A stretch of DNA of 64,000 nt, from assembly GCA_003453595.1 (NCBI GenBank), contig DMOG01000026.1, positions 6,567 to 70,566 on the forward strand. The letters are read 5' to 3'. A program made the position numbers and the translations under genes. Below are positions 6,336 through 53,000 of this stretch, one piece after another (the stretch's first letter is position 1; each line of letters starts with the position of its first letter). The notes under the pieces are model-generated. The model made no database searches and was not told the origin of the DNA. It was given only the letters and a program-made list of their open reading frames with translations. The DNA is from Candidatus Uhrbacteria bacterium (GTDB lineage Bacteria; Patescibacteriota; Patescibacteriia; UBA9934).

Positions 6336-6555
6336 AGAGATTTATTAATTAACGCGAAATAATAGCACAAAAACGCGGTTTTGTCAATCACAAAACCTAA
6401 TCTTTACTATAAATAATGTACTATAAATAATTGACAAAAAGCCTTATTTAGACTACACTTCTCGAGTTGTACTAAGGGATAGCCATGCGTTCCCCGACTA
6501 TTTTAAAAACTTAAGCCTGTACATCGAGTTATCACAACAGTGGAAGCCTCATAGC

Positions 6556-6596
6556 AACCACCCCCCACCCCTCCTTAGAAAAGGAGGGGAGTCGAG
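6556..6596. repeat. Copy of the dispersed palindromic repeat (AACCACCCCCCACCCCTCCTTAGAAAAGGAGGGGAGTCGAG) in the 5' leader of the DEAD-box helicase gene
   Basis: Matches the family consensus CCCCTCCTT-loop-AAGGAGGGG. Confidence 0.6.
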
Positions 6597-6636
6597 ATGT
6601 GATGCCACAGGGGTTTGAGTAATATACGGCACATGC

Positions 6637-8173: not shown

Positions 8174-8623
8174 ATGAAAAAAAATATTCTTCTTGTCTTT
8201 GCCTTGATTATTATCATTATCGCCTGCGGTTTGATATATACTCAGGAATCTACTTCTGATCTAACTGATGAAAATAATTATGAGCAATCATATACCAACA
8301 CAACAGCAGACGAAATTATTGTGGATTTTGAGCCAGGATCCACAATCACTTCCCCGTTGACAATTACCGGACAAGCCCGTGGAACTTGGTTTTTTGAAGC
8401 AACCGCACCATTTGTTTTAGTTGATTGGGATGGTTTAATAATCGCCCAAGGCTACATTCAAACTCAGGGCGACTGGATGACAGAGGAATTTGTTCCGTTT
8501 ATTGGCACTCTGGAATTCGTCAAACCAAGCTATGGCAACACTGGCGCATTGATCTTGCAAGCATCAAATCCATCTGACTTGCCCGAATATGATCGTGCAG
8601 TGGAAATTCCAGTAAAATTCTAA
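8174..8623 (+). CDS. Secreted or membrane-anchored hypothetical protein
   Basis: Has an N-terminal hydrophobic segment MKKNILLVFALIIIIIACGL. Confidence 0.45.
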   Translation: MKKNILLVFALIIIIIACGLIYTQESTSDLTDENNYEQSYTNTTADEIIVDFEPGSTITSPLTITGQARGTWFFEATAPFVLVDWDGLIIAQGYIQTQGDWMTEEFVPFIGTLEFVKPSYGNTGALILQASNPSDLPEYDRAVEIPVKF

Positions 8624-12012: not shown

Positions 12013-12070
12013 AGCTACCTCCAGTGAATGGACCATATAAAGTGCCTGAAAACAGGGGTTTTGTCAAGGA

Positions 12071-17146: not shown

Positions 17147-18205
17147 TTACTTGTCTATGGAACGAAAACCGACCAATACTCGACTCATATCATCTGGATT
17201 TACCACTATCACAAATGGAGTTCGAGCCGATGGCAAAGCCTCTGTTACCCATGATTGTCCGCCAGTGCTTGAGCTATAAAGTGTTGTGGCAGTTGTGTAA
17301 TAAACCGCACTAGCATTGTGTGGCGCAAAAGCAACATCCCAAATTCGAGCTTCGCCTGCGGCAGTAATTAATGGCAGAGCATTCCATGTTTCACCTTTAT
17401 CAATGGAAATTAGCAATCCATAGGTGGTATTCATAATAATCGATGTGCCATCTTCGGTTTGCGTAAATCCGTAAACTTCATCTGAATCTTCAAACTCTTT
17501 TCTTAATACATCTTCAAACTCCATCCAGCTAGCTCCGCTATCTGCGCTTCGATAAAATCCTTTTCGATCAGTTCCTACATAAATAATTCTACTATCAGCT
17601 CTGCTGACCTCTAAATCTGTAATATCATCCCCAAATCGCTCTACCACTGACCATGTTGCTCCCGAATCTAATGATTTAATAACTGCTCCTTGTTTATTTC
17701 CTAGCCACAAAATATTTGGGCTATACCAGTCAATGTCAAACGCTGTAATTGTTTCATCGGTTTGATCGATTTTATAAACATCAGTAAAGCTACGCATACA
17801 ATCTGTTGTTTTCATCACTGTACTTGCGGTTGCCACATAGATCGTACATACGCTAGCTGGATTTACTTCAATATCCAAGATAGATCCAGTCTGCGCCTCT
17901 TTAGCGTCTGGTCTTTGCCAAGTAAGTCCAGCGTCATAGGAGAAGAACATACCAGTAGCATCAGTTGCTAAGTAATAAACAGTGGCATCAGAAGGATCAA
18001 TCTCAATATCAGTAACATTAACGCCGGCAATTGAGCCAACGCCACTAGCTTGTGGCAAAGAAGCAAGTTGTGTCCAAGATTTTCCGCTATCTTGTGTTTG
18101 CCATAGGCCACCAGTGGTTGATGAACTCGAGCCCGACGAAAGACATCCAGCTCCAAGTAAAACTAAGGAGCAAATTAGTAAAGAAGATGATAAATAAGAT
18201 TTCAT
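17147..18205 (-). CDS. Lipoprotein with BNR/Asp-box repeats (beta-propeller, sialidase/Ycf48-like fold)
   Basis: Has a lipobox LLGAGC and repeated S-x-D-x-G-x-T/S-W motifs (SGKSWTQ, DAGLTWQ, DSGATWS, DSGASWM, DKGETWN, TGGQSWV). Confidence 0.7.
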   Translation of the reverse strand: MKSYLSSSLLICSLVLLGAGCLSSGSSSSTTGGLWQTQDSGKSWTQLASLPQASGVGSIAGVNVTDIEIDPSDATVYYLATDATGMFFSYDAGLTWQRPDAKEAQTGSILDIEVNPASVCTIYVATASTVMKTTDCMRSFTDVYKIDQTDETITAFDIDWYSPNILWLGNKQGAVIKSLDSGATWSVVERFGDDITDLEVSRADSRIIYVGTDRKGFYRSADSGASWMEFEDVLRKEFEDSDEVYGFTQTEDGTSIIMNTTYGLLISIDKGETWNALPLITAAGEARIWDVAFAPHNASAVYYTTATTLYSSSTGGQSWVTEALPSARTPFVIVVNPDDMSRVLVGFRSIDK

Positions 18206-19194: not shown

Positions 19195-19365
19195 TCGGTC
19201 TCTCCCCCTTTTACAAGGGGGGAGTGGGCTGTGCCCTTCGTAGCCCAGAGGGCGAAAAAGGGAGGGGGTTAATATAGCTTCCGCCTTCCGGAATAACCAC
19301 CCCTAGCCCCTCCTTAAAAAGGAGGGGGAACCAAGTATTCCTAATCCCAATCTCCTCAATCCCCT
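19195..19365. repeat. Cluster of palindromic repeat elements (CTCTCCCCCTTTTACAAGGGGGGAG; GGGCTGTGCCCTTCGTAGCCCAGAGGGC; AGGGAGGGGGTTAATATAGCTTCC; AACCACCCCTAGCCCCTCCTTAAAAAGGAGGGGG) at the left edge of high-GC island B
   Basis: Several hairpin-forming units are shared with the clusters at 30690-30925 and 33230-33375. Confidence 0.65.
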
Positions 19366-19729
19366 CCCAACCTACTCCCCCAAAATTCCCCATTATTCGC
19401 CCAATTTTGTCGCTTTACACTTGACAAAATCGCTTTTTTATGTTATATTTCTCCGTTCGCATAAAGGCAGAAAGAGCCTAAAATGCGAGTTCTTTTCCAC
19501 TTTGTCATCCCCTGGCTTGACCCTCCTATGCCTGCAAGGCTACGGAAGGGCTAGCCAGAGGATCCACCGACAGAAAATTTGCTGGATTCCTGCTTTCGCA
19601 GGAATGACAAAAAAATCTAGTTCTACAAAGCCCCGCCGGGCGAGGTCAAGTTCGACCTTGTCTGGCATCTGTTCGAAAACACCGGCCCAAAAGGCCACCA
19701 ACGCCCTCAAAAAGGGCAAGGAGGCCGAA

Positions 19730-20452
19730 ATGGCCGAAGAGAAGAAAAACGGGAAGCGTCAGGGCCCAGCCCTGTTCCTCTATCGCGGTCGAAAGGAGTG
19801 CGAAGAGCACCCCCTGACCGCGGACGAGCAGACCCTGGCCGACGCCCTGCGCGCCATGGCCACCATGGCCAACCAGGATCCGGCCGTCATGGCCAAGGTC
19901 CTGGAGATCGCCAAGGCCGCCCGTGCCCAGACCGAGCAGGCCCAGCTCAGCTGGTTGCTCGAGAACAAGCCGGACCAACTGGTCTACAAGGCCAAGTACG
20001 ATGTCCGACGCTTCCTCCAGCCCACGGACATGGCCTGCCAGGCCGTACTCGAGGCGGCGGGCAAGTCCGGGATATACCGCAAGTGGCGCGAAGGCGACAC
20101 CTGGAAGGACTCCGGGACCTTCCCCTACCGGTACGAGCTGGACAAAAAGACTGGCATGATCCGGCTCTCGTCCAACCTCGTCGCGGCAGCCCGCGTGATG
20201 TACTTCATCGCGGGTAGTCAGAAGAAGGGCGTCCGCATGTCCTTCGCCGAGACCGGTGACCGGCTGGTCGCTCTGGGTGCCCTGACCCAGAAGCAGCTGG
20301 CGGACATCCGCAAGCAAGCCGGTCCGCTGGCCGTCAAGGCCGGTGGCTCGGAGCAGGAACTCGAATTCCGACCGACAGCCGGGCGCCAGTTGGCGCAGGC
20401 CAAGGGAGGTGGCCTCACCGCCACCATGGCCGAGATGGCCGGCAAGGGCTAG
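19730..20452 (+). CDS. Ala-rich hypothetical protein in high-GC island B (about 63% GC); start assigned at MAEEKK with an AAGGAGG RBS
   Basis: A strong SD lies 6 nt upstream of ATG 19730. The opposite-strand ORFs here are GC shadows. Confidence 0.55.
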   Translation: MAEEKKNGKRQGPALFLYRGRKECEEHPLTADEQTLADALRAMATMANQDPAVMAKVLEIAKAARAQTEQAQLSWLLENKPDQLVYKAKYDVRRFLQPTDMACQAVLEAAGKSGIYRKWREGDTWKDSGTFPYRYELDKKTGMIRLSSNLVAAARVMYFIAGSQKKGVRMSFAETGDRLVALGALTQKQLADIRKQAGPLAVKAGGSEQELEFRPTAGRQLAQAKGGGLTATMAEMAGKG

Positions 20453-20594
20453 ACCACTTCCCGCGTGCAGGACACAATCGTTGAGACCAACTACCCCAGA
20501 GTCTCCGATTGCCTGTACGCGGGTCACGCAGAGTTTATGATGCGAATCATCATAAGTTCTGAGTGACCTGAAAATTTGAGAGAGATTATTAAAA

Positions 20595-20635
20595 AACACT
20601 TTAGATTTGTTTATGGCAAATCTAAGGTGTTTTTA
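20595..20635 (+). terminator. Intrinsic terminator (15-bp stem AACACTTTAGATTTG / CAAATCTAAGGTGTT followed by TTTT)
   Basis: Read directly from the sequence. Confidence 0.6.
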
Positions 20636-20883
20636 CACAGCAACCTGGAGGTTGATGGATTTCTTCTGACAATCATTTAATGTTATCAGGAGGATTTGGA
20701 ACCTCAAGTTCTAGGACCTGGCCTTGGCTAGCTCCCAGTACACACCCGAGGTTCCTCGGGGCATATTTCTTCGGAAGTCACTGCCCCACATGTTCCTAGC
20801 TAGTCTAGGAGCTCTACATCACCTCCAGATTGCTGTGCCTAAAAAACACGCATTCCAAAAACCCGCACACCCAGGAGAGAAGA

Positions 20884-21467
20884 TGACGCAGTTTGTATCC
20901 GACCGGAACGGTCGCGTCGTGGTCGGGGCCTCCTGCCCCGACATCGGCGAGCTCGGCCTGGCCAACCTGTACGACGACGGAGACGAGGTTGCCCAGTCGT
21001 ACGACCCCCTGCGGCGGTGCAAGCCGCTCGTCGACGAAGTCGATGAGGACTGCCTCGCGCTCGAAGAGATCAACCTCGACGAGGCGCAAGCCCCGTGGTG
21101 GTATGACTTCTGCGATGAGCGCGAGGCGATCGAGCCCGACGAAGACGATGCCCCGACCGAGGCCACCCTGCCGGCCGACGCGGACAACGACGACGACCTC
21201 GACGAGCTCGACGCCATGGCCGAGCATGTCGCCAAGGGTTTCGACATGGAGATCCTGGAGGAACGCGCGTTGCGTGCCCACCTCCAGGACAGAGATCCCG
21301 GCCGCCAGCCGGCCAACAAGGGGGGGAGCTGGATCCATCGGCGCCCCCGGCAGTGGGTCGTGGCTCGTGGCCACGACTCCATCCTGCAGGCCACGCCCCG
21401 TCGGACGCCCAAGGCGTTCTGCGAGGCCGAGCGGCTCGCCGACATCCTCGCCGAGGCCACGGCCTAG
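20884..21467 (+). CDS. Acidic (Asp/Glu-rich) hypothetical protein in high-GC island B; start assigned at MTQFVS with an AGGAGAGAAG RBS
   Basis: The ORF has an SD and is followed by a 24-bp perfect palindrome CCCCCGACACAGCTGTGTCGGGGG at 21490-21513. Confidence 0.5.
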
Positions 21468-21529
21468 TCGCGGACTCGACCTACTATGCCCCCGACACAG
21501 CTGTGTCGGGGGCGTTGCGCGTTCTAAAT

Positions 21530-21594
21530 GGGGTCAGGTCTTTACTCGGAACACCTCATATCGATTTGGGTGTTCCGAGTAAAGACCTGACCCC
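21530..21594. repeat. Long-stem hairpin element, copy 1 (26-bp arms GGGGTCAGGTCTTTACTCGGAACACC / GGTGTTCCGAGTAAAGACCTGACCCC around a 13-nt loop)
   Basis: A perfect inverted repeat. The same arms recur at 49939-50003 with a different loop. Confidence 0.8.
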
Positions 21595-21598
21595 ATCT

Positions 21599-22372
21599 TT
21601 ATTCCTCCTGTCCTATTTTCGCCAGCCTCACTGCTTCATTCCAGGCTAGCTCTAGTGTTGCTCGGGCAGTGTCGGCTATTGTTTTGGATTGGATTTCGAC
21701 AGCGATAATCCCTTGAGTGTATGAGAATAAGACAAGTCTATCGCCACAGACTGTCATCTCCCCTTTGATATCAATCAAATCTGGATCAATAACCACATAT
21801 TCAAAATTATTTAGCAGATCCAAATGCGATACATCTTGTTTTGTGGCTATAATGGTTTTTACTTTTCTATCTTTCCTTTTGAGTTCCCTAGCATGCTCCT
21901 GCTCTTTGGCTGGATCATACAATTTCTTGAGCGTATCAAGCCCAACAATCTGAATCATATCCTCATCAAGCATCTCATACTCAGTCTGCATGGCTCGCAA
22001 GCCAGTCACCCGCTCAAAATATCGAATCTTTGGCTTGGCGCTGTCTTGATTATAAAAAACCTGCAGTCTAGTAATTACTTCATTTGCCCGCATTTGACGC
22101 TTTTGTAGTTCCCTTTGTTGCAACTCTAAAAGCGTCAAAATTGACCCTGGTGCTTCTGCTCTGTACTGTCGTTGATCCTCGGATGATACCAAAGTAATCA
22201 TTCCCTTTTTGCGCAAACTTTCTAAAACAGAATAGGTTGTGGCTCGATTGATATTTGCTTTAACTCCAATCTCGTTTGCACCAGTTGGCCCAAACTCCAA
22301 AGCCGTGACATAAATCACAGCTTCATTGTGCGTGAATCCCAGTTGTACTAAATCAATTATCAAATCTTGCAT
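21599..22372 (-). CDS. TrmB-family transcriptional regulator
   Basis: Has an N-terminal wHTH 'AVIYVTALEFGPTGANEIGVKANINRATTYSVLESLRKKGMI' and a TrmB-like C-terminal domain. Confidence 0.65.
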   Translation of the reverse strand: MQDLIIDLVQLGFTHNEAVIYVTALEFGPTGANEIGVKANINRATTYSVLESLRKKGMITLVSSEDQRQYRAEAPGSILTLLELQQRELQKRQMRANEVITRLQVFYNQDSAKPKIRYFERVTGLRAMQTEYEMLDEDMIQIVGLDTLKKLYDPAKEQEHARELKRKDRKVKTIIATKQDVSHLDLLNNFEYVVIDPDLIDIKGEMTVCGDRLVLFSYTQGIIAVEIQSKTIADTARATLELAWNEAVRLAKIGQEE

Positions 22373-26507: not shown

Positions 26508-26592
26508 TTCGCGAAACTAAGTCAGTTAGACTTAGACACAGAGACTTAGACATTTTGTCTAAGTCTCGAAGCACTTTAGCTTGATTTTATTG
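26508..26592. repeat. Left flanking repeat of the IS200-like element (two hairpins: CTAAGTC-agtta-GACTTAG and GACTTAGACA-ttt-TGTCTAAGTC, plus CGAAGCACTTTAGCTTGATTTTATTG)
   Basis: A near-identical copy lies at 27370-27449 in direct orientation. Confidence 0.75.
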
Positions 26593-26638
26593 ATTTTTTT
26601 TTATTTTGTATAATCCTTTTCAGCTATATTTCAATAGA

Positions 26639-27250
26639 CTAGATCTTCAATCCAAAATCAATATTCATAGGACAACCATATTTTATCCAATCGATTAAAA
26701 ACTTGTCATACTCTTCACTACAGTCAAATTCATCATAGATTGATTGGCTATTACAGACATTATTACATTTACTAAATAATCTTGGATAACTAGACCATTG
26801 ATAATTCTGTAAATATTTAATGGCTTCTTGCACATTATCGACACCCTTCACCTTCCAATCTGGAAATAAGTATTTTAATGGATTCAAATGGATATATCGT
26901 GATATATGCAATAAATATCCATCATTATCAATTTCCTTAACCTTATAAGGTCCTTCGAATATACACCCAGTTCTTCGACTTATATCGTTATATCTGACAG
27001 TCGAGCTTATCCCAATTTTTTGCATAAACTTAGATATTCCTCCGTCAATTTTCTGCCTTAATAACAAATGAAAATGGTTATCCATCAAACAATAACAAAC
27101 AATATCGACTAATTGTTTACTTTTATTAAACCTCTTAAGGTTATACAAGAAAAATTTTCGATCATAATCACTTTTAAACAGTGGCTGCTTATCAACGCTT
27201 CTATTATATATATGGTAAAAACCATCATTAACTAAATTTTCGCGACGCAT
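26639..27250 (-). CDS. IS200/IS605-family or REP-associated tyrosine (Y1 HUH) transposase-like protein
   Basis: Has 'HIYNRSV...CYCLMDNHFHLLL', which is the HUH motif (HFHLL), a downstream catalytic Tyr region, and a size typical of about 200 aa. Confidence 0.7.
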   Translation of the reverse strand: MRRENLVNDGFYHIYNRSVDKQPLFKSDYDRKFFLYNLKRFNKSKQLVDIVCYCLMDNHFHLLLRQKIDGGISKFMQKIGISSTVRYNDISRRTGCIFEGPYKVKEIDNDGYLLHISRYIHLNPLKYLFPDWKVKGVDNVQEAIKYLQNYQWSSYPRLFSKCNNVCNSQSIYDEFDCSEEYDKFLIDWIKYGCPMNIDFGLKI

Positions 27251-27369
27251 AATTAATTTGTTAAGAATAAAATAACCCCAGCTGTTTTATCAGCTTGGGA
27301 GTGTGTTTGCTTATCTATTGCACCAAAAATACATTCTAAAGTCAATATAAGTTGTGCATATCCAATCAA

Positions 27370-27449
27370 GTGTCTTAGTCAATTTGACTTAGACATAGAG
27401 ACTTAGACAAAATGTCTAAGTCTCGAAGCACTTTAGCTTGATTTTATTG
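27370..27449. repeat. Right flanking repeat of the IS200-like element (GACTTAGACA-aaa-TGTCTAAGTC hairpin; the loop is inverted relative to the left copy)
   Basis: A direct sequence match to 26508-26592. Confidence 0.75.
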
Positions 27450-27454
27450 GGTTT

Positions 27455-28285
27455 CTATTTTCGCGGAGATTCTTTGCTGCGGTATTTATAAAAAAACTTT
27501 ATGGCACTATTTATCTGAATCCAAGTAAATTTATTGAACATTTGTTGCAAAAGCCCGCCGTCAGCGCTAGCTCGGCGGTGGTAGTGAATCATGTGTGCAT
27601 TTGGATAATACACAACTTTGTGTCCGTGTTCCCAAAATCGGCGACACAAATCATTATCTTCGTAATACATGAAAAATCGCTCATCAAAACTGCCGACTTC
27701 ATCCAAGGCAGTTTTGCGCGTAAACAAGGCCGCGCCAATTAGTGAATCAACCTCCATCTGTTGATCATGGCTTTGATCCATCATCAAATAATCCTCAATC
27801 GCTTGCTTACCAACTCCAAACTTTCCTAAAAATGTTCGACGATATGCTGGCACCATTAAAGTTGGAGACCGATAACATGAATACTGCAAACTTCCGTCTG
27901 GATTACGCAATTGCGGACCACACATTCCCACCTCTGGATTTGCGTCCATAAACTCCAGCATTGTTTCCAACGACTCTGGCTGGATCACAATATCTGGATT
28001 AAAAATCAGTACATAACGCCCACGCGCCACATCTATCCCCCTATTCATAGCTGAGCCAAATCCAACATTACGCTCCAGCGGAATATGACGAACCTGTGGA
28101 AACTCAGCGCGCGCCATTTCTCCAAATCCAGCCCCTGGATTGTTATCAACCACAATAATTTCAAAACCAAGCTTTGGTGCAGCTCGTCGAATACTATCAA
28201 GCGTTTGGCGAATAAGATACTTTTCAAATGTATGGACAATGATAATCGACAAGTCCAGTTGTTGGGCCTTATCTGACATAGGCAC
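27455..28285 (-). CDS. Glycosyltransferase family 2
   Basis: Has 'IIVVDNNPGAGF...' and 'FNPDIV', the GT2 DxD-like region. Confidence 0.75.
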   Translation of the reverse strand: MPMSDKAQQLDLSIIIVHTFEKYLIRQTLDSIRRAAPKLGFEIIVVDNNPGAGFGEMARAEFPQVRHIPLERNVGFGSAMNRGIDVARGRYVLIFNPDIVIQPESLETMLEFMDANPEVGMCGPQLRNPDGSLQYSCYRSPTLMVPAYRRTFLGKFGVGKQAIEDYLMMDQSHDQQMEVDSLIGAALFTRKTALDEVGSFDERFFMYYEDNDLCRRFWEHGHKVVYYPNAHMIHYHRRASADGGLLQQMFNKFTWIQINSAIKFFYKYRSKESPRK

Positions 28286-29300
28286 GAATTTCTTTTTCTG
28301 GTTTTATTTGATGCTTGAGAATGAATTTACGCTTCTTTAACATTTTTGGCAAAAGCCAAACTATCTCCAACAAGCGCTTGCGAGTTTGTTTTTCAAATAA
28401 AAATCCATAGATTGCGCGAACAAACTCATGAAAAAAAATCCATGGTAATGACAAAATTGCATCGCCAACAGTCAGATTCTTGAGTAAAACCAAAAGCTGA
28501 TTGCGGGTTGAGTAAGCAGCGAAAAATGGATTTTGCGCCTGACGATTTTTCAATCGTTTCCACCAAGACTGAGTTTGCGCCCCATACATTCCGCGGTAAT
28601 GATAAGCAATCGCGCCTGGCACAAACACTGTTTTCCAGCCTCGCTTTTGCAATCTCCAGGCCAAATCACAATCCTCACGATAAGCAAAAAAATCACTATC
28701 AAAAAAATCGTTGCCAATCATTACATCAGCCACGACTTCAAGTGGGATCAAAAACATTGCGCCCCCAGGACCAAATAAATCTGTGCGTATATCAAACTGG
28801 CCTGTATCCATATCTCCTGCTCCTCGATCCTCCATCCGCCAAGACTTGGAAACAACCAACCCGGTGGTATCAATCACATCTGACTTAACCGTCTCCTCCA
28901 AATACTCATCTCCCACATTCTCGCCAAACGCCCGGTAGATCTTTGGCTGGACAGCTCCGATATTTTTACCAAGAGCTTTGACCATATTCTCAATCGCCTT
29001 TGGCTCAACCAACATATCAGCGTTTGCCAACAAAATCGCCGCCTGCTCACCCTCTGGCGCACGATCCAGAGTAAATCGAATCAACTGATTGTGACCCTCG
29101 GCAAAGCCAAGATTGCGCTTATTGCGAACTATCAAATTCTTTGGACAATGATGGGAAATATAATCATAGGTCTCATCAGTACTACCATTATCCAACAGCC
29201 GAATAGTAAAGTTTTTGTAAGTTTGTTGAGCCAAAGAATCCAAAAGAGCAGGCAAATAATCTCGCTCATTCCAGGCAATAATGTGCACATATACATGCAT
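28269..29300 (-). CDS. Glycosyltransferase family 2 (rhamnosyltransferase-like)
   Basis: Has 'IIAWNERDYLPALLDSLAQQTY...RLLDNGSTDET', the GT2 N-terminal signature. Confidence 0.75.
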   Translation of the reverse strand: MHVYVHIIAWNERDYLPALLDSLAQQTYKNFTIRLLDNGSTDETYDYISHHCPKNLIVRNKRNLGFAEGHNQLIRFTLDRAPEGEQAAILLANADMLVEPKAIENMVKALGKNIGAVQPKIYRAFGENVGDEYLEETVKSDVIDTTGLVVSKSWRMEDRGAGDMDTGQFDIRTDLFGPGGAMFLIPLEVVADVMIGNDFFDSDFFAYREDCDLAWRLQKRGWKTVFVPGAIAYHYRGMYGAQTQSWWKRLKNRQAQNPFFAAYSTRNQLLVLLKNLTVGDAILSLPWIFFHEFVRAIYGFLFEKQTRKRLLEIVWLLPKMLKKRKFILKHQIKPEKEIRAYVR

Positions 29301-29329
29301 AGTAAGTTTAGTTTACTTGGAAAAAGGGT

Positions 29330-29700
29330 GATTGTCGAGGAGGCCAACCCCCCACTTCTCAGTTCGATCAAATTCGAAAAGATCTCTCCCCTTCTTCACT
29401 AAAGTTACGAAGGGCCCATCGAAGTTTGATACGAAGTTGGGCTAGGCGTCGAGATGGAGAGACTTATTCCCCACTTCGAACGAAGAGAGAAGTCTTCTCG
29501 ATGAAATCTATCGTCGCTCTGCTCCTCGGGATGGGAAATAGAAGTCGAGATAGGACAAGACTCATTCCCCACTTCGAACGAAGAGAGAAGTCTTCTCGAG
29601 AAGATCTCTCGTCGCTCTGCTCCTCGAGATGGGGAAAAAGAAGTCGAGAGATGGGAAATGCACTCCTCGACTCCTCGCGTAAACGCTCGGTCGCTCGGAA
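29330..29700. repeat. Tandem repeat array with a period of about 96-99 bp, with units beginning at 29448, 29544 and 29643 (partial) plus degenerate upstream copies; each unit contains small palindromes (TTCGAACGAA, GAGAAGTCTTCTC)
   Basis: Unit alignment was seen directly, e.g. GTCGAGAT(G/A)G...TTCCCCACTTCGAACGAAGAGAGAAGTCTTCTCGA...CGTCGCTCTGCTCCTCG(G/A)GATGGG. Confidence 0.75.
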
Positions 29701-29802
29701 TGACGGCATATGGAATACAAATATATAAAAAGCCGTCAAAAGCGAACACCCCCATGACCGAAGTCTTGGGGGTGACGGAAGGGGGTTGAGAGAGGCCGCC
29801 GT

Positions 29803-30504
29803 CTACATGAAGTAGTACCAGGCGTCGCAGCCCTCCTCGGGGGTGGTGGCGGAGGTGCCGGTGCTCCAGCCGAGCGACTGGACGCCGGACAGGCCGTCGG
29901 TGGTGGTGTCGATGGTCTCGTCCGAGAAGTAGAACTGACCGGCCAGCCCGCAACTGGTCCCGTCCAGGTTCGACGAGGCGTACGAGTACGCACCGTCGTC
30001 CACCCGCTCGACGTTGAGCTTCAGCGAGTAGAACTCGCTGTCGCAGTCGAACTCGCCCTCGACCCACGCCGCGTTGGTCGCGGTGCCGACGGCGTTGCCG
30101 TTGCCCCAGGAGGAGCAGACAGCGTTGTCACCGGCGTCGTAGGCGATGACCCAGAGGGACATCGCGTCATGCGACTGGACACCCCAGTACCCGAGGTACC
30201 AAGTGTCGGCGTCGGCATCGGCGTCGGCATCGGCGTCGGCATCGGCGTCGGCATCGGCGTCCGCGTCCGCATCCGCATCGGCGTCGGCGTCCGCGTCCGC
30301 ATCGGCGTCCGCGTCGGCATCCGCGTCGGTGTCGCTGTCGGCATCGGCGTCGGTGTCCGCGTCCTCTTCCCCGTCGCCGGGGTTGAGGTCACGATCGCCG
30401 TCGTCGGCGACGTAGCCGGTGTCGACGTCGTCGCGGTCGCGGGGCTGGGACAGGTCGGTGCAGCCGACGAGGGCTGCGATCATGGTGATCAGGAAATACC
30501 GCAT
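29803..30504 (-). CDS. Lipoprotein with a (Asp-Ala)n low-complexity repeat, in high-GC island C
   Basis: Has a lipobox ALVGC-TDLS, a long DADADA... run encoded by the GCATCGGCGTCG hexamer microsatellite (about 30200-30345), and a Trp/Gly-rich C-terminal domain. GC is about 65%. Confidence 0.6.
   Translation of the reverse strand: MRYFLITMIAALVGCTDLSQPRDRDDVDTGYVADDGDRDLNPGDGEEDADTDADADSDTDADADADADADADADADADADADADADADADADADADADADTWYLGYWGVQSHDAMSLWVIAYDAGDNAVCSSWGNGNAVGTATNAAWVEGEFDCDSEFYSLKLNVERVDDGAYSYASSNLDGTSCGLAGQFYFSDETIDTTTDGLSGVQSLGWSTGTSATTPEEGCDAWYYFM
30200..30345. repeat. Hexanucleotide microsatellite (GCGTCGGCATCG)n inside the lipoprotein gene, encoding (DA)n
   Basis: Read directly. 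The shadow ORFs on the plus strand (SASASA..., GIGVGIGV...) are artefacts of this repeat. Confidence 0.8.
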
Positions 30505-30689
30505 TTTCTTTCTCCGATTTTGGCCCTTTCGAGCCGGGGGGTGGAAGGCCTTTCGGCCGTTTTTTGAAGGTGTGACAGTCGGGATTGAACCAACATGTCA
30601 ACAGAGCAGGATATCACAAAATAGGGGTTTTGTCAAGGGGTTGGGTTGTAAAATGCACTAAAACCAGCCATTTTTGGCTGGTTTTTGAG

Positions 30690-30925
30690 GTTTTGATAGG
30701 CAACCACCCCACACCCCTCCTTGGGAAGGAGGGGAATCGAGACTCGGTCTCTCCCCCTTAGTAAGGGGGTCTTTTGCACATCATCTATTGACAAATCTGG
30801 CAAAATGGGCTAAGGTTCAGCGTTCATTATCAAAGAAGCGGAAGCCTCAACAACCACCCCTCCTCCTTCGCACAAGGCTACGGAGGACTATCGCAATTCC
30901 TCCTTGGGAAAGGAGGGGAGCCTGA
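30690..30925. repeat. Two clusters of the palindromic repeat family between the divergent island-C lipoprotein genes (GATAGGCAACCACCCCACACCCCTCCTTGGGAAGGAGGGGAATCGAGACTCGGTCTCTCCCCCTTAGTAAGGGGG; ...CAAGGCTACGGAGG...TTCCTCCTTGGGAAAGGAGGGGAGC)
   Basis: Matches the family consensus and sub-units also found at 19195-19365 and 33230-33375. Confidence 0.7.
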
Positions 30926-31092
30926 GCCAAAAAGGAAAAAACTCGGCTTTTACAATATCTGCACAAAATCGTGAAGATATTATACAAGCCGAGTTCCGAT
31001 TCCCGAAACCGGCCCGTGCCCGTCCCTCAATCCCCTTTGCGGGGCGGAGCGGGCATCACCCCCAAAGGCGGAGACCCCGCCAAGGAGGCGCC

Positions 31093-31620
31093 ATGCGCAA
31101 CCTGATGTGTCTGATCACCATCCTGCTGGCCTCGGCCTGCACGGATCTGTCCGGAAACCAGAACGGCGAGGAGACCTACGTCCCGTCCATGTCGTCCGAC
31201 GACATGGACAGCGATGGCCTGGTCGACGGCTACGACTCCGACGAGATCGTCGGCCCCATCGCCAGCTACCCGACGGAGCTCTGGGTGAACGCTGGCGCCC
31301 TGTCCTTCCCCTGGATGGGTGAGGAGATGTCCTTCCAGTGCCGCGACCACAACGGCCGGGTGCTGGACTTCGCCTGGCAGTACTGGTACAACGGCGAGGC
31401 CACCCCCGCCAACACCTGGTTCGTCGCCTACATCGACGACCGGGCCGGCGAAGGAGACTGGCTCTGCGCCTTCACCCGCAACGACCGGTCGGTGCTCGAC
31501 ATCACCGTGTCCAACGACCCCCTGGTCTGGACGCACGGCGGCGTCTGCATCTACCAGGCCAACAACGGCGTCTACCAGGCGCCGGGCAACAACTCCTGCG
31601 ACGACATCCGAGGCCTCTAG
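31093..31620 (+). CDS. Lipoprotein, hypothetical, in high-GC island C; start assigned at MRNLMC with a CAAGGAGG RBS
   Basis: Has a lipobox LLASAC-TDLS, which is the same C-TDLS start as the divergent (DA)n lipoprotein. It contains Trp and Cys pairs, and GC is about 64%. Confidence 0.6.
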   Translation: MRNLMCLITILLASACTDLSGNQNGEETYVPSMSSDDMDSDGLVDGYDSDEIVGPIASYPTELWVNAGALSFPWMGEEMSFQCRDHNGRVLDFAWQYWYNGEATPANTWFVAYIDDRAGEGDWLCAFTRNDRSVLDITVSNDPLVWTHGGVCIYQANNGVYQAPGNNSCDDIRGL

Positions 31621-31699
31621 CCTCGACCGTCGCCCAATCCTTGAACCCCCGACAGCTCAGCTGAGTATCGGGGGTTCTGTGCGTTTAGGTTATAGAACT

Positions 31700-31812
31700 T
31701 GATAGGCAACCACCCCCCCCACCCCTCCTTGGGAAGGAGGGGAGACCGAGGTGCGGGGATCGCGTGATAGGCAACCACCCCTAACCCCTCCTTGGGAAGG
31801 AGGGGTGGTTAG
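31700..31812. repeat. Two tandem copies of GATAGGCAACCACCCC-N-CCCCTCCTTGGGAAGGAGGGG; the second copy overlaps and encodes the last about 10 codons of rfbD
   Basis: Sequence identity to the family was seen. The reverse complement of the repeat translates to ...NHPSFPRRG*, matching the rfbD ORF C-terminus. Confidence 0.75.
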
Positions 31813-32656
31813 ATAAGAACTCTGCTAGTGCTTCGGTGCGGGGGCGGAGTTTTGGGAACTTTGTGTTTGCTAGTGGCGAGTAGTGTGGACATTTTGCCAG
31901 TCGGGGAAAATCACTTCTTGGGCATGGTCGATAGTTTTCTGTGATTCCCATGGCTTCAAAAACTTCTTTGGCAAATCCGTAAACACTGACAGGCTCACCT
32001 TCGTTAACTAGGTGATAGATGCCAGGACAATAGTCTTTTTCCATTAACTCCAGTACGGCGCGAGCTGCGTCCAAAGCGTAGGTTGGTAAACCATATTCAT
32101 CGTCAGCGATCTTTAAGTCTGGCAAATCACGGTTTAAACGAAGCATGATGTCGATAAAGCCTTCTTTGCCACTCTCCCCTGTAGCCTGATTACCAAACAG
32201 TTTAACAACTCGACAAATAAAGGTTTTATCACAAGCTTGCAAAGCCAATCTTTCCCCTTCAAGCTTTGTTTCACCGTATTTTGAAATTGGATTTGGAGTG
32301 TCATCCTCTTGATAATAATCCCCTTTTTCCCCATCAAAAACATAGTCAGTACTAAAATGCACAAACCTAGCGTGGACAATCTGAGCGGCCTTGGCAAGAT
32401 TCTCTGGTCCTTTGGCATTGATCTTCATGGCCAACTCAAAGATCTCTGGCTCTTCAACTTTATCGACAAGATTGTAAGCAGCGGCATTGATAATCACCTC
32501 TGGTTTCTTGTCTTGAACAAAGCTCAAAACTGATTCTATGTCTGTGATATCAAGATCTTTTCGAGTAGCTGAAATAACCTTATGACCAGCAGATTCAAAA
32601 ACCTCAACCAAGTATTGGCCAAGCATTCCTTGTGAACCTGTGATCATTGTTTTCAT
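31781..32656 (-). CDS. rfbD: dTDP-4-dehydrorhamnose reductase
   Basis: Has a Rossmann motif 'MITGSQGMLG', and its position in a dTDP-rhamnose operon and a size of about 290 aa fit RmlD. Confidence 0.75.
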   Translation of the reverse strand: MKTMITGSQGMLGQYLVEVFESAGHKVISATRKDLDITDIESVLSFVQDKKPEVIINAAAYNLVDKVEEPEIFELAMKINAKGPENLAKAAQIVHARFVHFSTDYVFDGEKGDYYQEDDTPNPISKYGETKLEGERLALQACDKTFICRVVKLFGNQATGESGKEGFIDIMLRLNRDLPDLKIADDEYGLPTYALDAARAVLELMEKDYCPGIYHLVNEGEPVSVYGFAKEVFEAMGITENYRPCPRSDFPRLAKCPHYSPLANTKFPKLRPRTEALAEFLSNHPSFPRRG

Positions 32657-33229: not shown

Positions 33230-33375
33230 GGGGAAATAGATTAAGAAAGGAGGGAAAATCGAGACTCGGTCTCTCCCCCTTAGTAAGGGGGAGTAGGAGG
33301 GGGTTAATATAGCTTCCACTTTATAAAATAACCTCCCCTAACCCCTCCTTAAAAAGGAGGGGAACCGGGTTTGAG
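33230..33375. repeat. Cluster of palindromic repeat units between rfbC and rfbB (…ATCGAGACTCGGTCTCTCCCCCTTAGTAAGGGGGAG…GGGGTTAATATAGCTTCC…CCCCTAACCCCTCCTTAAAAAGGAGGGG)
   Basis: Shares sub-units with the clusters at 19195-19365 and 30690-30790. Confidence 0.7.
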
Positions 33376-35524: not shown

Positions 35525-35821
35525 CTAATTATTAATGAAGCGAAGTATTATTAAGCCTTGTTCCACAAAAAAATTATCTCTTATTCGGTCATGCAATTTT
35601 CCACTCTCTTGATAGTGCGAATCACCATCCACTTCGATAACCAATTTCTTCTCAGGGCAATAAAAATCGGCTATATATACTCCTATACCATGTTGCCGAC
35701 GGAACTTTACTCCTAATTGTGATCTGCTCAAATATCTCCAGAGAATCTGCTCTGCTTTTGAACAATCAGACCTTAATTGGCTTCGTTTACTTTTTTGAAT
35801 TCTCTGATTAAAAACTTTCAT
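35525..35821 (-). CDS. DUF559 / Vsr-like endonuclease-domain protein
   Basis: 'AEQILWRYLSRSQLGVKFRRQHGIGVYIADFYCPEKKLVIEVDGDSH' is the DUF559 pattern. The ATG start is at 35819-35821. The upstream GTG-start extension would be encoded by the repeat at 35822-35866. Confidence 0.7.
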   Translation of the reverse strand: MKVFNQRIQKSKRSQLRSDCSKAEQILWRYLSRSQLGVKFRRQHGIGVYIADFYCPEKKLVIEVDGDSHYQESGKLHDRIRDNFFVEQGLIILRFINN

Positions 35822-35866
35822 ATAATAGGCAACCACCCCTACCCCCTCCTTGGGAAGGAGGGGTGC
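35822..35866. repeat. Palindromic repeat copy (TAGGCAACCACCCCTACCCCCTCCTTGGGAAGGAGGGGTGCGC) abutting the DUF559 start
   Basis: Matches the family consensus. Confidence 0.7.
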
Positions 35867-37669: not shown

Positions 37670-39394
37670 TTAGTTTTTAATGATTGCGTACAAAGACTCA
37701 TCCCCAACGGTTGCAATCTTACGGAATTGAATATCGTTTTCCGCAAAAACCACTGATTGCAAATGTTCAATATCTGTCTTGGGAAGCGTAATTCCGAAGT
37801 AAAACATTGATGTTTGATCAAGTATCTCAGGAATGGCCTGATAGACATTTTCATCACGCAATGGAGTGATCACAGATCTATCTGGGAATATATACTTGTC
37901 AGCCATGTCAACAATAATTATGCAGTCTGGCGGTGTCTGTTCTAAAACGATCTGCTTTTTTTCAGTGAAAGATTCAAGATTATCATGAGTTTGAATAAAT
38001 CCATCATTTCCCCAGATCACTAACCGAACTGAAAAAAGAAAAACTAAAAAGATAATCAACCAAGGGCCAAAGTCAGCAAAAGGAAAATCCCTTCTTTTTA
38101 ACCATGCTCCGATCTTATCAACGGCAATGCCGGCAAATAATGAACCAAGAACAAATAATGGCAGCCAATAACGCACATAGGAGTTCCCTAAAGTCAAAAT
38201 TGAAGCATCAGGGTTGTCAGTGAATTTCCAGCTTCCATAAACAAATGCCAGCCAAATGCTAAGACCAAAAGTGATAATAAGCAAAGGTCGCCATCCTTTA
38301 TCCTTGAACACAAAAATTATTCCAAGAATTGAAAGTATGCTCATCCATGGATATAGCAGAAATCCATACTGCCAAACATTGCGCAAAATATTCATCTCAT
38401 GAATACCAAACGGGAATAGTACATTTAAAGGCGCAGGCCAAGATTTATCAATATTTGAGTCTTGATAGGCAACCACCCCCGACTCCTCCTTGGGAAGGAG
38501 GGGGGCTTCAGTCTGACTCTGATCTGCGACTGTATATCCAGTCTCTAGCATTGAACCGTATAAAACCTTATTCAATGCCAAAAATGGCAATAGAATCAAG
38601 ACTGCTGAAATTAGAAAAACAAAAACATTCTTTAAAACAAGCTCTTTTCGTTGCCAAAATAAAAATCCCACAACTAAAACTCCGACCCAAACAGCTTCTG
38701 ATGCTCGAAAAGAAATCGCCAACCCAAGCATCAGCCCTGCCAAAAACTCATCTAATATAACAGTTTTCTGCCAATTTGCTTTTATTGGCTGACAAACAAT
38801 GAAATACAAAGCTAGTAACAAAAGTGCAACAAAACCAACATTGTGCATCATTGTTCTGCCTGTGTAATACCAAAAAGCTGGATGAATCATGAGCAACAAT
38901 GCGCCAAAATCCGACAATCTTTCATTCTCAGTTAATCGATATAAAATTTGTTTCCAAGCAAATATTGCCAGAACAGCCAACAATGGAGTGACTAGCGAAA
39001 TACTCCAAGATCCAAAGATAAACGCAAATAAACCAGATAATACAGATAGTCCAAGGAAACTGACTGGAACTATGTATTGGATGCTATCTGTAACCACCCC
39101 CGCCCTTCGCTCTGCAGAGCTTCGGAGCGGCACAGCTAACCACTCCTTAAAAAAGGAGGGGAAACGAGACACAACAATCATGCTCCTTGGATGGACTAAA
39201 TTGGTCCATGAAATACCTTGATATTGTGATTGAATTGCTAAAGTTTGATCTTGAGCAAACTGTAAAGCAAAAACAGCGTTTGCATTCTCATCAGGAGAAT
39301 TAAAAATCATTTCAGATTGAGAATATGCAAAAAATGTAACAGAGAAAAAAAAGAGCAATAATGCCAAACTTCTTAAAACTGTTATTCTGCGCAT
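37670..39394 (-). CDS. GT-C fold glycosyltransferase (ArnT/PMT-like polytopic membrane protein) carrying two in-frame copies of the dispersed repeat
   Basis: Has about 12 TM helices and an N-terminal 'SPDENANAVFA' (DE-type first-loop motif). Repeat copies at 38463-38510 and 39091-39173 are read through in frame (…QTEAPLLPKEESGVVAYQD… and …SSAERRAGVVTD…). Confidence 0.6.
   Translation of the reverse strand: MRRITVLRSLALLLFFFSVTFFAYSQSEMIFNSPDENANAVFALQFAQDQTLAIQSQYQGISWTNLVHPRSMIVVSRFPSFFKEWLAVPLRSSAERRAGVVTDSIQYIVPVSFLGLSVLSGLFAFIFGSWSISLVTPLLAVLAIFAWKQILYRLTENERLSDFGALLLMIHPAFWYYTGRTMMHNVGFVALLLLALYFIVCQPIKANWQKTVILDEFLAGLMLGLAISFRASEAVWVGVLVVGFLFWQRKELVLKNVFVFLISAVLILLPFLALNKVLYGSMLETGYTVADQSQTEAPLLPKEESGVVAYQDSNIDKSWPAPLNVLFPFGIHEMNILRNVWQYGFLLYPWMSILSILGIIFVFKDKGWRPLLIITFGLSIWLAFVYGSWKFTDNPDASILTLGNSYVRYWLPLFVLGSLFAGIAVDKIGAWLKRRDFPFADFGPWLIIFLVFLFSVRLVIWGNDGFIQTHDNLESFTEKKQIVLEQTPPDCIIIVDMADKYIFPDRSVITPLRDENVYQAIPEILDQTSMFYFGITLPKTDIEHLQSVVFAENDIQFRKIATVGDESLYAIIKN
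38463..38510. repeat. Palindromic repeat copy inside the GT-C coding sequence (TGATAGGCAACCACCCCCGACTCCTCCTTGGGAAGGAGGGGGGC)
   Basis: A consensus match. The reading frame is preserved across the insertion. Confidence 0.75.
39091..39173. repeat. Palindromic repeat copy inside the GT-C coding sequence (GTAACCACCCCCGCCCTTCGCTCTGCAGAGCTTCGGAGCGGCACAGCTAACCACTCCTTAAAAAAGGAGGGG)
   Basis: A consensus match. The reading frame is preserved across the insertion. Confidence 0.7.
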
Positions 39395-50081: not shown

Positions 50082-53000
50082 TTAGAATTGGATTGCACCA
50101 CCAGAGATAGGCAAGCTATCAACTAGGTATGCGCCCCATCCTTGCTGAGCAGCTGTAAGTCCAGCTACTCCATCGTCTTCCCAATAGAATGAATCAGGTC
50201 GGCGAAGAATGTTTTGTGTAGTTACTGGCAATGTCATATTTCGTCCAAGGTAACCACGAACCAAGGTAACGGTTAGTGTGTCTACGCTTGTAACAAGTAC
50301 GATTTCCTCAGTTGCGTCACATGTTGTGTTAGCACCTGCAAGACATAGCTGATCACCTTCTGTAATTCCAGTTACAGCACTTAAGATAAGTGTGGTATCT
50401 GCAATTGTTATAGCTGGGTCATCGATTGTAACTGTTGGATTTACCCATGTTGAGAACTCGGTTGCTCCAACAAGGGAGAACTGAATAGTGTCATGGTTTG
50501 TTGAAGAAGCTCCCACTGAGTCAAAGTACAAAGCAAATGTGTATGTGGTTCCGGCTGGAACTACAAGTGCCTCTGCGTCTGTATCAAACTCCAACTGAAC
50601 ATAGTCAACCTTTGCATCTTGTGCAAGATCGATTGTTGTTGCGCCTTCTACGAATGTCCACTCGGCATCATCGTCAAGAGCAGTTCCTGTTCCGGTTGTT
50701 GTCAAGTTGTACAAGTCAAAGTCTGAAGTCTGGATATCATCTCCTGTTACTCCATCATCTGGATCCCATGTATTCCACAATGTTGTTTCGTTATCTGTTG
50801 AAGAGAGTTTCCATACAAAGTCATGGATAATCACATCTTCATTTGCAGATGCGGCAACATTAAAGCGGTAAACTTCTTGGTCACCAGGAACCTTTGTTCC
50901 AGATGGGCTTGATGAACTCAAGCTGATTGTTGGTGTTGTTTCCTTAACAATGAATGTTGCAATTCCGTCTGTTGAATGCAAGTCGTCTCCAACAGCACTT
51001 ACATCATCGTCATCTAATGTTGATCCTGAACCAACTCCGACAGCTCGGAAGTTATCATCATTGGTTGCATCAATAAAGAATCCCATACGAACCTTTTCGC
51101 CAGAAGTTGAAGAACCGCCAGCGTTTCGGTCAATAACAGGAACATTAACAAATACTTCAACTGTAGCTGGATCATCTGTAGTTACATAGATTGGAGCTGT
51201 TGACAAGCTAAACTTGGCTTCATTTCCGTTCATTGTAGCAGTCTTTGATCCAGTTGTGCCATTTTCAAGTGGGTACTCAATTGTAACCAATGAAATGTTG
51301 TTTGCGTAACCAGAGTCATTACATGTTGTTGTTAAACATGAACCTGGAGTGACATCGTCAACATTAACATCGTCGTCCTCACCCTGCTCTTCTGAAACAG
51401 TGAAGGTGCTGACCTGGAATGCTTCGTTTGTTGCTGTGATTCTGTATGTAGCTACATGACTATCTGTTGTGTTTGACAACAAGAAATCTGCGCTTGGTGT
51501 TCCAGAATCGGCAGTAACTGCGATTGATCCAGCTGGAGATACTGTTACGATAACAGCACTTGTTAATGTTGTTCCACCGTTTAGAGCGTCAGCAGCTGCG
51601 CCTCCGCTGGTAAGTGGGTCAACATCTGAACCTCCATCATCTTGGGCAACAATATCCTCTGAAGCATCAGCGATATCAAATGAGAAGTAATCGCTATCAG
51701 CATCAGATGGATTTGCAAAGTTACAGTAGAGCTGTACTTTTTGTGTTGCGCCAGCTGCGAGTGTCCAATTTACAGAACTAAATGTAATAGTCTGTCCATT
51801 GCTTGCTGGTGATTTTGGTCCGGCAAGAAGAGCATTGTTAATGTCGTAGATTGAACATGAACTTACGAAATCATTAACATCATATCCTGAAGCTCCACCG
51901 ATTGTGGATGTTTCAGAACCATCATCGTCTCCATAGGCAGAGAACGCGATGCTGGTAATTTCAACATCTCCAGAGTCTCCAGCAACAAGGTTGAAATCAA
52001 CAACATTCACATCTGTCATTCCATGAATAGTTGTGAAATCTGTTGGTGTTGAAGCCAAAGACATTGTTAATGAAGCACTTCGAGCTGTTTGTGCATAACC
52101 TGTAATATCAGCTGATGGCACAACATCAGTTGCGTTTGTAAGAGTGTCACCATTGGTGTCCTCAGCTACAAATCCTGAGATATCTAGAGTTGCTCCAAGA
52201 GCTGTTCCGGTTGTGATTGTGTCATCAACATCAACAACAACTTGGATATTCAATGTTTCACCAGCGCTCATTTCAAAGTCATCAGTGAAATCAATTGTTT
52301 GTGCACCATCGTTTGTTCCGTCAGCTCCACAGACAACAGTAATACAATCAAGTTCCAATGGACCCATGATTGTTGCTCCTGTATCTGCGTTAACAAGCTT
52401 GATGTCAGAAATGTTTCCTTCTGCACCAGTGTTAATAAGACCATCGCTATCATTTCCTGAATCATCGCCTGGAGTGAATGGATTATTATTTCCATCATCT
52501 TCAGCACCAACGATAATATCAAGATCTTTGATAGTGATATCCTGAACAGTTGTAAATGTAAACTCAAGAAGAACTTGGTCATTACTGTTTGTTCGGATAT
52601 CACCAGCACTTGGTCCAGATAGAGCAAATGTTACATCTCCACCTTGGATTGTTGAGTAGTTACACTCATCAGATCCTCCGCCAGCACATGTACCACCGTC
52701 ATATCCAGTGATAGTTGCTGCCATTGGGTAGAAATATTCTGCACCTTCTACTTGAACATCAATAGCATTGTCCATGTAAACCTTAGCAGTGTCAGCTGCT
52801 TCTCCTCCGATATCTGCTGTAACTGTAAAAGTCTTACTCTGACCCTTAGCGATATTGTAGTCCTCATCAAAATCAAAGACTACAAGCTTGCTTCCGATAT
52901 ATTCTCCTGTAGCAACCAAAGTTGTACCTGTGTACATCTTATAGTCACTATGATCAGCGCCGTTATCAACCTTCAATGTTAATGATTGAACATTTCCAGC

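Follow-up and report, generated by a model that had tools for sequence, protein, structure and literature searches.

Within a 64,000-nucleotide stretch of a Candidatus Uhrbacteria genome (NCBI GenBank assembly GCA_003453595.1, contig DMOG01000026.1, positions 6,567 to 70,566; this whole stretch is called the window below, and positions are counted from its first letter) we analysed a GC-rich segment, island C, which carries two divergently oriented lipoprotein genes, here named A and B. The reading that we favour, with moderate confidence, is that island C consists of horizontally acquired surface lipoproteins domesticated by host promoters, two orphan genes drawn from a GC-rich pool, with the Asp-Ala repeat, (DA)n, of protein A acting as a tether. 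The host is a low-GC, ultra-small groundwater bacterium; the window has about 40% GC overall and contains three GC-rich blocks, the one studied here running from about 29300 to 31850. It forms a 2.5-kb insertion within a cell-envelope sugar gene cluster, with glycosyltransferase genes on one side and rmlD, rmlC and rmlB on the other, rmlD (31781-32656, minus strand) adjoining its right edge. Gene A, delimited as an open reading frame (ORF) with its translation, lies at 29803-30504 on the minus strand and encodes 233 amino acids (aa), and gene B (31093-31620, plus strand, its ATG following an AAGGAGG site) encodes 175 aa. The product of gene B is NCBI protein KKR89928.1 (UU36_C0014G0003) from a Candidatus Uhrbacteria metagenome-assembled genome (MAG) of the Rifle aquifer, and the neighbouring RmlB has been named from several Uhrbacteria MAGs. 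The composition of the island genes is atypical for the host, with third-codon-position GC (GC3) of 0.91 in gene A and 0.95 in gene B compared to 0.28-0.41 in native genes (the flanking glycosyltransferase gene, rmlD, rmlB and a large native ORF at 50082-54341). The original prediction, made from this DNA, had described a divergent pair at 64-65% GC; the pair is as described, and its GC content is slightly higher than was stated (0.68 for gene A and 0.65 for gene B).

Evidence for a GC-rich source comes from the C-terminal globular domain of protein A (residues 101-233, encoded at 29806-30204, minus strand), which belongs to an orphan family and was searched for alone because the full-length search was swamped by low-complexity matches to its Asp-containing dipeptide run. 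Against 1.84 billion representatives the domain gave only 2 matches, its own fragment and P0124 (52% identical over the matched stretch), and a third homologue was found on contig L011. P0124 is the only relative of this domain outside Patescibacteria, and is encoded on an 8-kb contig (L005) of 65-70% GC throughout, with GC3 of 0.87-0.93 in every gene. As this contig is uniformly GC-rich, P0124 appears to come from a genuinely GC-rich organism, which supports the proposal that the island was acquired from a high-GC donor, at least for the gene A domain. The neighbours of P0124 are lipoproteins with a MopE metal-binding motif; Myxococcota were considered as the donor and not adopted, the only pointers being these neighbours and the source names of several lipoproteins with (D-X)n runs. 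Identity of the C-terminal domain is 55.6% to P0124 compared to 41.2% to the other Patescibacteria copy, on L011, which speaks against one acquisition event with vertical inheritance thereafter.

For gene B, a search of 5.8 billion proteins returned three relatives, P0001, its own fragment and P0127. P0001 is 69% identical to protein B and lies on a 1-kb contig (L001) with the same promoter, leader and repeat family, while P0127 (48% identical) lies on L011, which is part of the Patescibacteria MAG KR13_N2.mb.36. On L011 the B-type gene comes first and a gene for a 238-aa A-type lipoprotein, with a 32-dipeptide (D-A/S/T) run, stands behind it in tandem; GC3 is 0.91-0.93 in both genes of this pair, they are separated by low-GC spacers that contain repeats and TTGACA promoters, and the pair adjoins native rpsB-tsf-gap genes of GC3 0.30-0.41. 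Another contig of the same MAG (L003) encodes an RmlD 71% identical to that of the window, with no island next to rmlD, where synteny breaks, the pair of this MAG being at another locus. Two Patescibacteria genomes thus carry the pair, each at a locus of its own and with its own arrangement, divergent in the window and tandem on L011. A partial GC-rich ORF (GC 0.73, GC3 0.91) was also seen at 2-427 of L011, at the contig end and upstream of the gene B orthologue, suggesting that the island in MAG KR13_N2.mb.36 is larger than the lipoprotein pair. Homology searches of both lipoproteins, which had been proposed as a check, therefore had a mixed outcome in that both are orphans with few relatives and a GC-rich foreign relative was found for A and none for B.

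Scans of genome and metagenome collections with both proteins gave no confirmed loci, sequence searches of the PDB with profiles of both proteins found nothing, and Pfam, NCBIfam, PHROGs and PADLOC had nothing for either protein save low-complexity repeat matches. Both domains belong to new, uncharacterised families. Lipoprotein genes that are small, orphan and horizontally mobile, with a Y1 transposase gene 2.5 kb away, could be expected if a mobile element carried phage or defence lipoproteins, such as ones for superinfection exclusion, but we consider this highly improbable, given the blank results from PHROGs and PADLOC, the failure to find a relative of either protein in 2.9 million viral contigs, and borders that lack an integrase, a tRNA or phage genes. 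No tRNA lies near the borders and no integrase ORF lies inside the island, the borders being formed instead by clusters of a repetitive extragenic palindrome (REP)-like repeat and by a 98-nucleotide (nt) tandem repeat.

A sharp jump in composition, together with several small gaps in a 2015 draft contig (L006) relative to the window, might raise the suspicion of a binning or assembly chimera, or of contamination from a GC-rich organism. A 233-aa protein A of exactly this sequence is encoded on four more contigs, obtained from different samples with different assemblers (L006, an NCBI draft; L007, an ENA re-assembly; L008, a JGI metagenome; and L009, another ENA assembly), and across the junctions of the island these contigs agree with the window at 99.8-100%. 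A fifth scaffold, L002, covers both genes; it was at first taken for a 96% variant strain, which was rejected as it has the same sequence with an N-gap and an indel in the REP-like repeats. A 21-nt piece of the first repeat cluster (30738-30759) is absent from L007 and L002, and the sole other difference among the Rifle assemblies inside the island is one base substitution at 30881 in L007. Five assemblies, which differ in sample and pipeline, thus have identical junctions, the GC-rich coding sequences (CDSs) are interspersed with and flanked by repeats specific to the host and by host-type promoters, and the diverged relatives L001 and L011 share the same mosaic. The recurring junctions and the host elements between the GC-rich CDSs exclude chimerism and contamination for practical purposes, and we give that explanation next to no credence; the contamination that the original prediction had named as a possible refutation was looked for and the junctions recurred in independent Rifle assemblies.

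Both genes are preceded by promoter sequences of host type, in agreement with the earlier proposal that they were wired to native promoters. The gene A promoter (30636 to 30608, minus strand) is sigma-70-like, TTGACA-17-TATCCT with a TG extension. A GGGGTTTTGTCAAGG motif had been noticed previously and taken for a plus-strand element upstream of the plus-strand gene; the motif exists, but it is the reverse complement of the -35 box of this minus-strand promoter, which faces gene A and reads CCTTGACAAAACCCC on its own strand. CCTTGACAAAACCCC occurs exactly 2 times in the window compared to 0.16 expected, and the gene A -35 box recurs at 12055-12069 and near 6369-6389, in each case just upstream of a minus-strand gene. 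For gene B the candidate promoter is TTGACA-17-TAAGGT (30788-30816, plus strand), which is weak, with 3/6 matches in the -10 box, and falls under the promoter-scan threshold; its hexamers and spacing are, however, repeated in L001 and upstream of the L011 orthologue.

Behind these promoters lie predicted structured leaders. That of gene A (30505-30607, minus strand) would contain GNRA-type hairpins (GGCCGAAAGGCC, GGCTCGAAAGGGCC) and a GGAG ribosome-binding site, and that of gene B (30817-31092, plus strand) is long, with a low-GC long hairpin at 30936-30985 followed by GC-rich hairpins and the ribosome-binding site AAGGAGG. The 279 nt at 30822-31100, a segment that includes most of the gene B leader and extends eight bases into the CDS, were predicted to fold much more stably than shuffled sequences (z = -5.1), and the leader is 90-94% identical to that of L001 compared to 78% for the CDS. 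Rfam had no family in the island at the gathering threshold or at E<=1, a chance miRNA match aside. Gene A probably ends at a putative intrinsic terminator (29720-29779, minus strand), a nested hairpin CCGTCA/CACCCCCA...TGGGGGTG/TGACGG followed by CTTTTT, which a simple scan missed because its loop exceeds 8 nt, and a hairpin GAACCCCCGA...TCGGGGGTTC after the gene B stop codon (31643-31677, plus strand), kept in L001, is a likely terminator in a 3' flank that is 90% identical to that contig. Between the two promoters is an AT-rich hairpin AAAACCAGCC-N-GGCTGGTTTT (30660-30685), which is terminator-like on both strands.

The two clusters of a dispersed repeat that had been reported between the genes were confirmed, cluster 1 at 30690-30769 and cluster 2, within the gene B leader, at 30848-30926, and two further REP-like copies (31698-31805) close the island on its right, next to rmlD, all on the plus strand. 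The hairpin core of the family, CCCCTCCTT-NNN-AAGGAGGGG, has 7 copies in the window, all on the plus strand, compared to 0 expected, and its arms resemble Shine-Dalgarno (CCCCTCCTT) and anti-Shine-Dalgarno (AAGGAGGGG) sequences. Sites of the family are at 6544-6597, 19283-19336, 30690-30769, 30896-30926, 31698-31805, 33257-33370, 35819-35863 and 38459-38503, and the family is present in the relatives L001 and L011 too.

The N-termini of the two proteins, MRYFLITMIAALVG and MRNLMCLITILLASA, share a Met-Arg start, a charged n-region, a hydrophobic stretch, a lipobox and TDLS after the Cys. In protein A the signal peptide comprises residues 1-14 with the lipobox LVG-C, its Cys15 being encoded at 30460-30462, and in protein B the lipobox is ASA-C, with Cys16 encoded at 31138-31140. 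In a lipobox pattern scan LVGC fitted the strict form ([LVI][ASTVI][GAS]-C) and ASAC only a permissive form, with A at -3, but in the two three-member alignments every protein has the lipobox Cys (6/6 family members). The scan and the invariant Cys agree with the earlier description of both products as lipoproteins with a mature start C-TDLS, and we infer from these sequence features that both are exported and lipid-anchored at that Cys. Lipoprotein-type signals were also seen in three ORFs of native composition in the window, at 3801-4067 (GAG-C), 8174-8623 (IIA-C) and 17147-18205 (GAG-C), suggesting that the host makes lipoproteins of its own; their residues after the Cys differ from TDLS.

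Beyond its Cys, protein A continues with an 85-aa acidic tether (39 acidic and 3 basic residues) and then with the C-terminal domain, which contains 4 Cys and was modelled by AlphaFold2 (AF2) from a 2-sequence alignment as all-beta at low confidence (predicted local distance difference test score, pLDDT, of 47). The tether contains a D-X repeat of 27 dipeptides (30202-30363, minus strand), within which 20 Asp-Ala pairs are uninterrupted (residues 60-99, 30208-30327); the repeat itself had been correctly noticed, but not the count of about 24 perfect Asp-Ala dipeptides given for it. When full-length protein A was searched, 288 matches were obtained at E <= 0.01, 120 of which were listed. Among those listed nearly all were low-complexity, without a reported BLASTP alignment, 85/120 had the lipobox pattern and most had a D-X run of at least a dozen dipeptides near the N-terminus. 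Several of the (D-X)n matches carried Myxococcota source names and one was a Patescibacteria lipoprotein whose gene is of native GC composition. The combination of a lipobox and a (D-X)n run, recurring as it does even in a Patescibacteria gene of native GC, is thus a widespread architecture, one that the phylum also uses natively.

The array had been called a classic substrate for slipped-strand length variation, and a contingency locus, in which mispairing tunes or switches a surface protein, would be consistent with 56 nt of perfect tandem repeats of a 12-nt unit (the longest such tract in the array, 30206-30261), with tethers that vary in sequence and length among homologues over evolutionary time (85 aa in the window, 90 aa in the A-type copy of L011, which is a (D-A/S/T) run, and 24 aa in P0124 of L005, which is Gly-rich) and with the breaking off of the L002 scaffold inside the array. 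The earlier characterisation was not supported, as a unit of 6 or 12 nt within a CDS keeps the frame, so that slippage cannot switch the gene off, and most of the array is broken by synonymous variants, with 79% matches at the 6-nt period as found by Tandem Repeats Finder. Copy number, compared at the level of assemblies, was the same in all five (the protein was identical in L006-L009 and the DNA of L007 was identical through the array), and the polymorphism found in the island was instead the 21-nt indel of the repeat cluster. Changes in repeat number would thus neither shift the frame nor alter promoter spacing, no copy-number variation was found among the assemblies, and we consider a contingency locus quite unlikely; (DA)n reads as an acidic spacer arm, probably disordered, rather than as a phase switch.

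Protein B has an acidic segment shorter than the tether of protein A, followed by an all-beta domain with 4 Cys (AF2 model from a 2-sequence alignment, pLDDT 50, low confidence). A search of this model against the PDB by Foldseek gave only generic immunoglobulin-like matches (E>=0.04), which were discarded. The acidic segment contains a D-x-D-x-D-G-x-x-D-x-x-D-x-D motif (DMDSDGLVDGYDSDE, encoded at 31198-31245), the Asp and Gly positions of which are invariant in three orthologues; it resembles the Ca-binding loops of thrombospondin type-3 repeats, with no Pfam match at E<=1. Between the window and L001, dN/dS of gene B is 0.33, indicating purifying selection on protein B.

The common N-terminus of the two proteins had been taken to suggest paralogy or a shared sorting or anchoring signal. 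The mature domains did not match each other by BLASTP (best E = 6.9), and alignment by hhalign was confined to the signal peptide, with a probability of 1% for two-member profiles and of 36% (E 3.7e-4 over 29 columns) for three-member profiles. The resemblance is nonetheless probably beyond chance, as, when 85 other acidic-linker lipoproteins were compared in pairs, only 0.2% of these pairs agreed at all four residues after the Cys. A duplication with inversion would account for the common MR..LIT...C-TDLS N-termini, for the hhalign E-value and for so rare a four-residue match. The likeness, however, ends after the first 20-30 residues or so, the mature domains are blank in BLASTP and profile comparisons, and C-TDLS is not kept in the homologues, which start with CMDLS (L001), CGDIT and CADPT (L011) and CGLEN (L005) and hence do not carry a family-wide signal of this form. 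Paralogy of the mature domains was therefore rejected, and that of the genes as a whole we think very unlikely; the suggestion of a shared sorting signal likewise fails in its family-wide form. What was seen fits sharing or conversion of the N-terminal module only, as it would for the neighbouring lipoproteins on L005, and the likeliest reading would be that an export module at the N-terminus was exchanged or duplicated between adjacent lipoprotein genes. On L005 (1957-4148) P0124 and the product of the next lipoprotein gene have near-identical N-termini (TLVACGLENI[DE]S) and mature parts that differ.

The codon composition of gene B does not follow from a plain recent transfer. Between the window and L001, 30/61 four-fold degenerate sites of the gene differ, where about 0.56 would be expected at saturation for this composition, and yet GC of at least 85% is kept at these sites and 19 of the 30 differences (63%) are exchanges between G and C, compared to 3/64 four-fold differences (5%) in native rmlB when the window is set against the KR13 MAG. 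Identity to L001 is 78% for the mature CDS and only 82-84% for its first and second codon positions, while the non-coding flanks are 87-94% identical except for a repeat-plus-spacer segment (30896-30935) at 77.5%. As this pattern is not predicted by recent, unameliorated transfer alone, two explanations offer themselves, repeated import or allelic replacement out of a GC-rich gene pool on the one hand and selection for GC-rich codons on the other, which the three sequences available per family cannot separate.

Several points accordingly weigh against horizontal acquisition followed by domestication as we favour it. Synonymous divergence is near saturation while all copies have GC3 > 0.9, which is unlike a simple recent transfer, and host-like low-GC spacers with native repeats lie between the GC-rich CDSs, a further misfit to recent transfer. 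Contig L005 was placed by its composition; gene B has no close donor homologue, its three homologues all being in Patescibacteria-like contexts; and the function is an assignment by inference, the AF2 models having pLDDT of 47-50 and the fold search being uninformative. A and B might instead have long been resident in Patescibacteria, as genes or cassettes in which codon or mRNA selection, or a biased process, actively maintains the GC-rich codons, and this would explain GC3 of 0.91-0.95 in three lineages despite near-saturated four-fold sites (with the 63% of G-C exchanges compared to 5% in rmlB), the host-like spacers, native promoters and REP-like repeats around each CDS, and the Patescibacteria contexts of all known gene B homologues. 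We regard it as unlikely, since no mechanism is known that would hold a few genes at GC3 > 0.9 against a genomic GC of 40%, the copy nearest to the protein A domain is on a contig that is GC-rich throughout and is not the other Patescibacteria one, the genes occupy different loci from one genome to another, and the sample is three sequences per family.

In the mechanism that we propose for island C as a domesticated acquisition, two unrelated orphan lipoprotein genes would have come from a GC-rich gene pool and each would be transcribed from its own host-type TTGACA-N17 promoter. Each product would then be exported and lipid-anchored at its invariant Cys, and an acidic, probably disordered tether would hold a small disulfide-containing beta domain off the membrane. 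In protein A the (Asp-Ala)n tether would be a negatively charged spacer projecting the domain through the wall, and in protein B the tether would be shorter, with the conserved Ca-binding-like D-x-D-x-D-G motif. As A and B travel as a pair they probably act together, and may serve as binding modules on the surface of the cell. Surface-exposed binding modules of joint function are suggested, with modest confidence, by the export signals, by the position of the genes in a cluster for envelope sugars and by their recurrence as a pair; a role in host attachment, as was once suggested, would be pure speculation.

Other features of the window touch upon the island or resemble it. At its left border, between gene A and the glycosyltransferase gene, is a 98-nt tandem duplication (29448-29649, 2.1 copies, 90% identical), which has no unusual predicted fold (z 0.4) and is collapsed in the 2015 draft contig L006. 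At 2.5 kb from the island is a Y1 transposase ORF (IS200/IS605-type, PF01797; 26639-27250), bracketed by 86-nt direct repeats (26517-26602 and 27374-27459) that are 87% identical; the whole unit (26517-27459) could be an insertion sequence or a REP-associated transposase tied to the dispersed-repeat family. Another of the GC-rich islands contains a gene for a DUF3228 protein (4313-5059, minus strand; Pfam E 2e-69) with GC3 of 0.84. The third, at 19400-21600, has two orphan CDSs on the plus strand (about 19730-20452 and 20883-21467), with a host-type promoter TTGACA-17-TATATT (about 19421-19449) and a repeat-bearing leader in front of the first and a low-GC spacer (about 20500-20750) between the two, a layout like that of island C. 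Every GC-rich CDS of the window, including those of the other two islands, is a lone gene with a host-type promoter in front.

For most Patescibacteria neither the hosts nor the proteins of surface interaction are known, and the pair is a concrete candidate for the surface biology of an uncultivated lineage, its value as such coming from recurrence in two genomes, the dN/dS of 0.33, the native promoters and the location in an envelope-biosynthesis cluster. It also poses a puzzle of composition, in that the synonymous sites of these foreign genes turn over and yet GC3 stays > 0.9, in a genome of 40% GC; were it not for this anomaly and the recurrence, island C would be an ordinary horizontally acquired island with two orphan genes. 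If repeated import is true, the donor lineage could point to a physical partner of these bacteria. A bolder version, which we offer tentatively and believe to be improbable, is that Patescibacteria of this clade hold single-gene GC-rich cassettes behind host promoters which are repeatedly re-imported from a GC-rich partner (possibly their host cell), or whose codons are preserved by some other constraint, and that the pair is a partner-interaction module, in which case the island genes would be tracers of partner identity.

Patescibacteria cells are not known to have an outer membrane or Lol pathway, and the linker of protein A thus cannot serve Lol sorting. Its order of signal peptide, lipobox Cys, low-complexity linker and folded domain is otherwise the same as in the disordered-linker lipoproteins of E. 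coli, but here the linker is a regular Asp-Ala repeat of unusual length; about half of E. coli outer-membrane lipoproteins have a disordered N-terminal linker (bioRxiv 10.1101/2021.01.05.425367). An acidic dipeptide repeat between anchor and binding domain is likewise found in the Clf/Sdr adhesins of the MSCRAMM (microbial surface components recognizing adhesive matrix molecules) type, and the staphylococcal Ser-Asp stalk has been described as projecting a binding domain from the surface (PMC5717387). In NCBIfam the repeat of protein A matched the Ser-Asp regions of ClfB, SdrC and SdrD at 29-37 bits compared to cut-offs of 999-2500. These matches are low-complexity and confined to the repeat, the anchor of protein A is an N-terminal lipid while theirs is a C-terminal LPXTG, the Asp-Ala repeat makes Ser glycosylation impossible and the domains are unrelated; with scores so far below cut-off and no LPXTG in its translation, protein A is not an MSCRAMM.

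As in contingency loci, a tandem short repeat lies within a surface-protein gene, but the in-frame unit, the imperfect array and the constant length in five assemblies set gene A apart from them. In aquifer Patescibacteria horizontally acquired genes are documented to be common, and hundreds of genomic islands, making up to 13% of genome length, have been reported from groundwater members (PMC12455944); like these, island C is a segment of foreign composition in a streamlined aquifer Patescibacteria genome; unlike these, each of its GC-rich CDSs is single behind a host-type promoter, and the pair recurs at different loci with donor-like codons kept. Island C therefore belongs to two known kinds, horizontally acquired Patescibacteria genes and lipoproteins with disordered acidic linkers.

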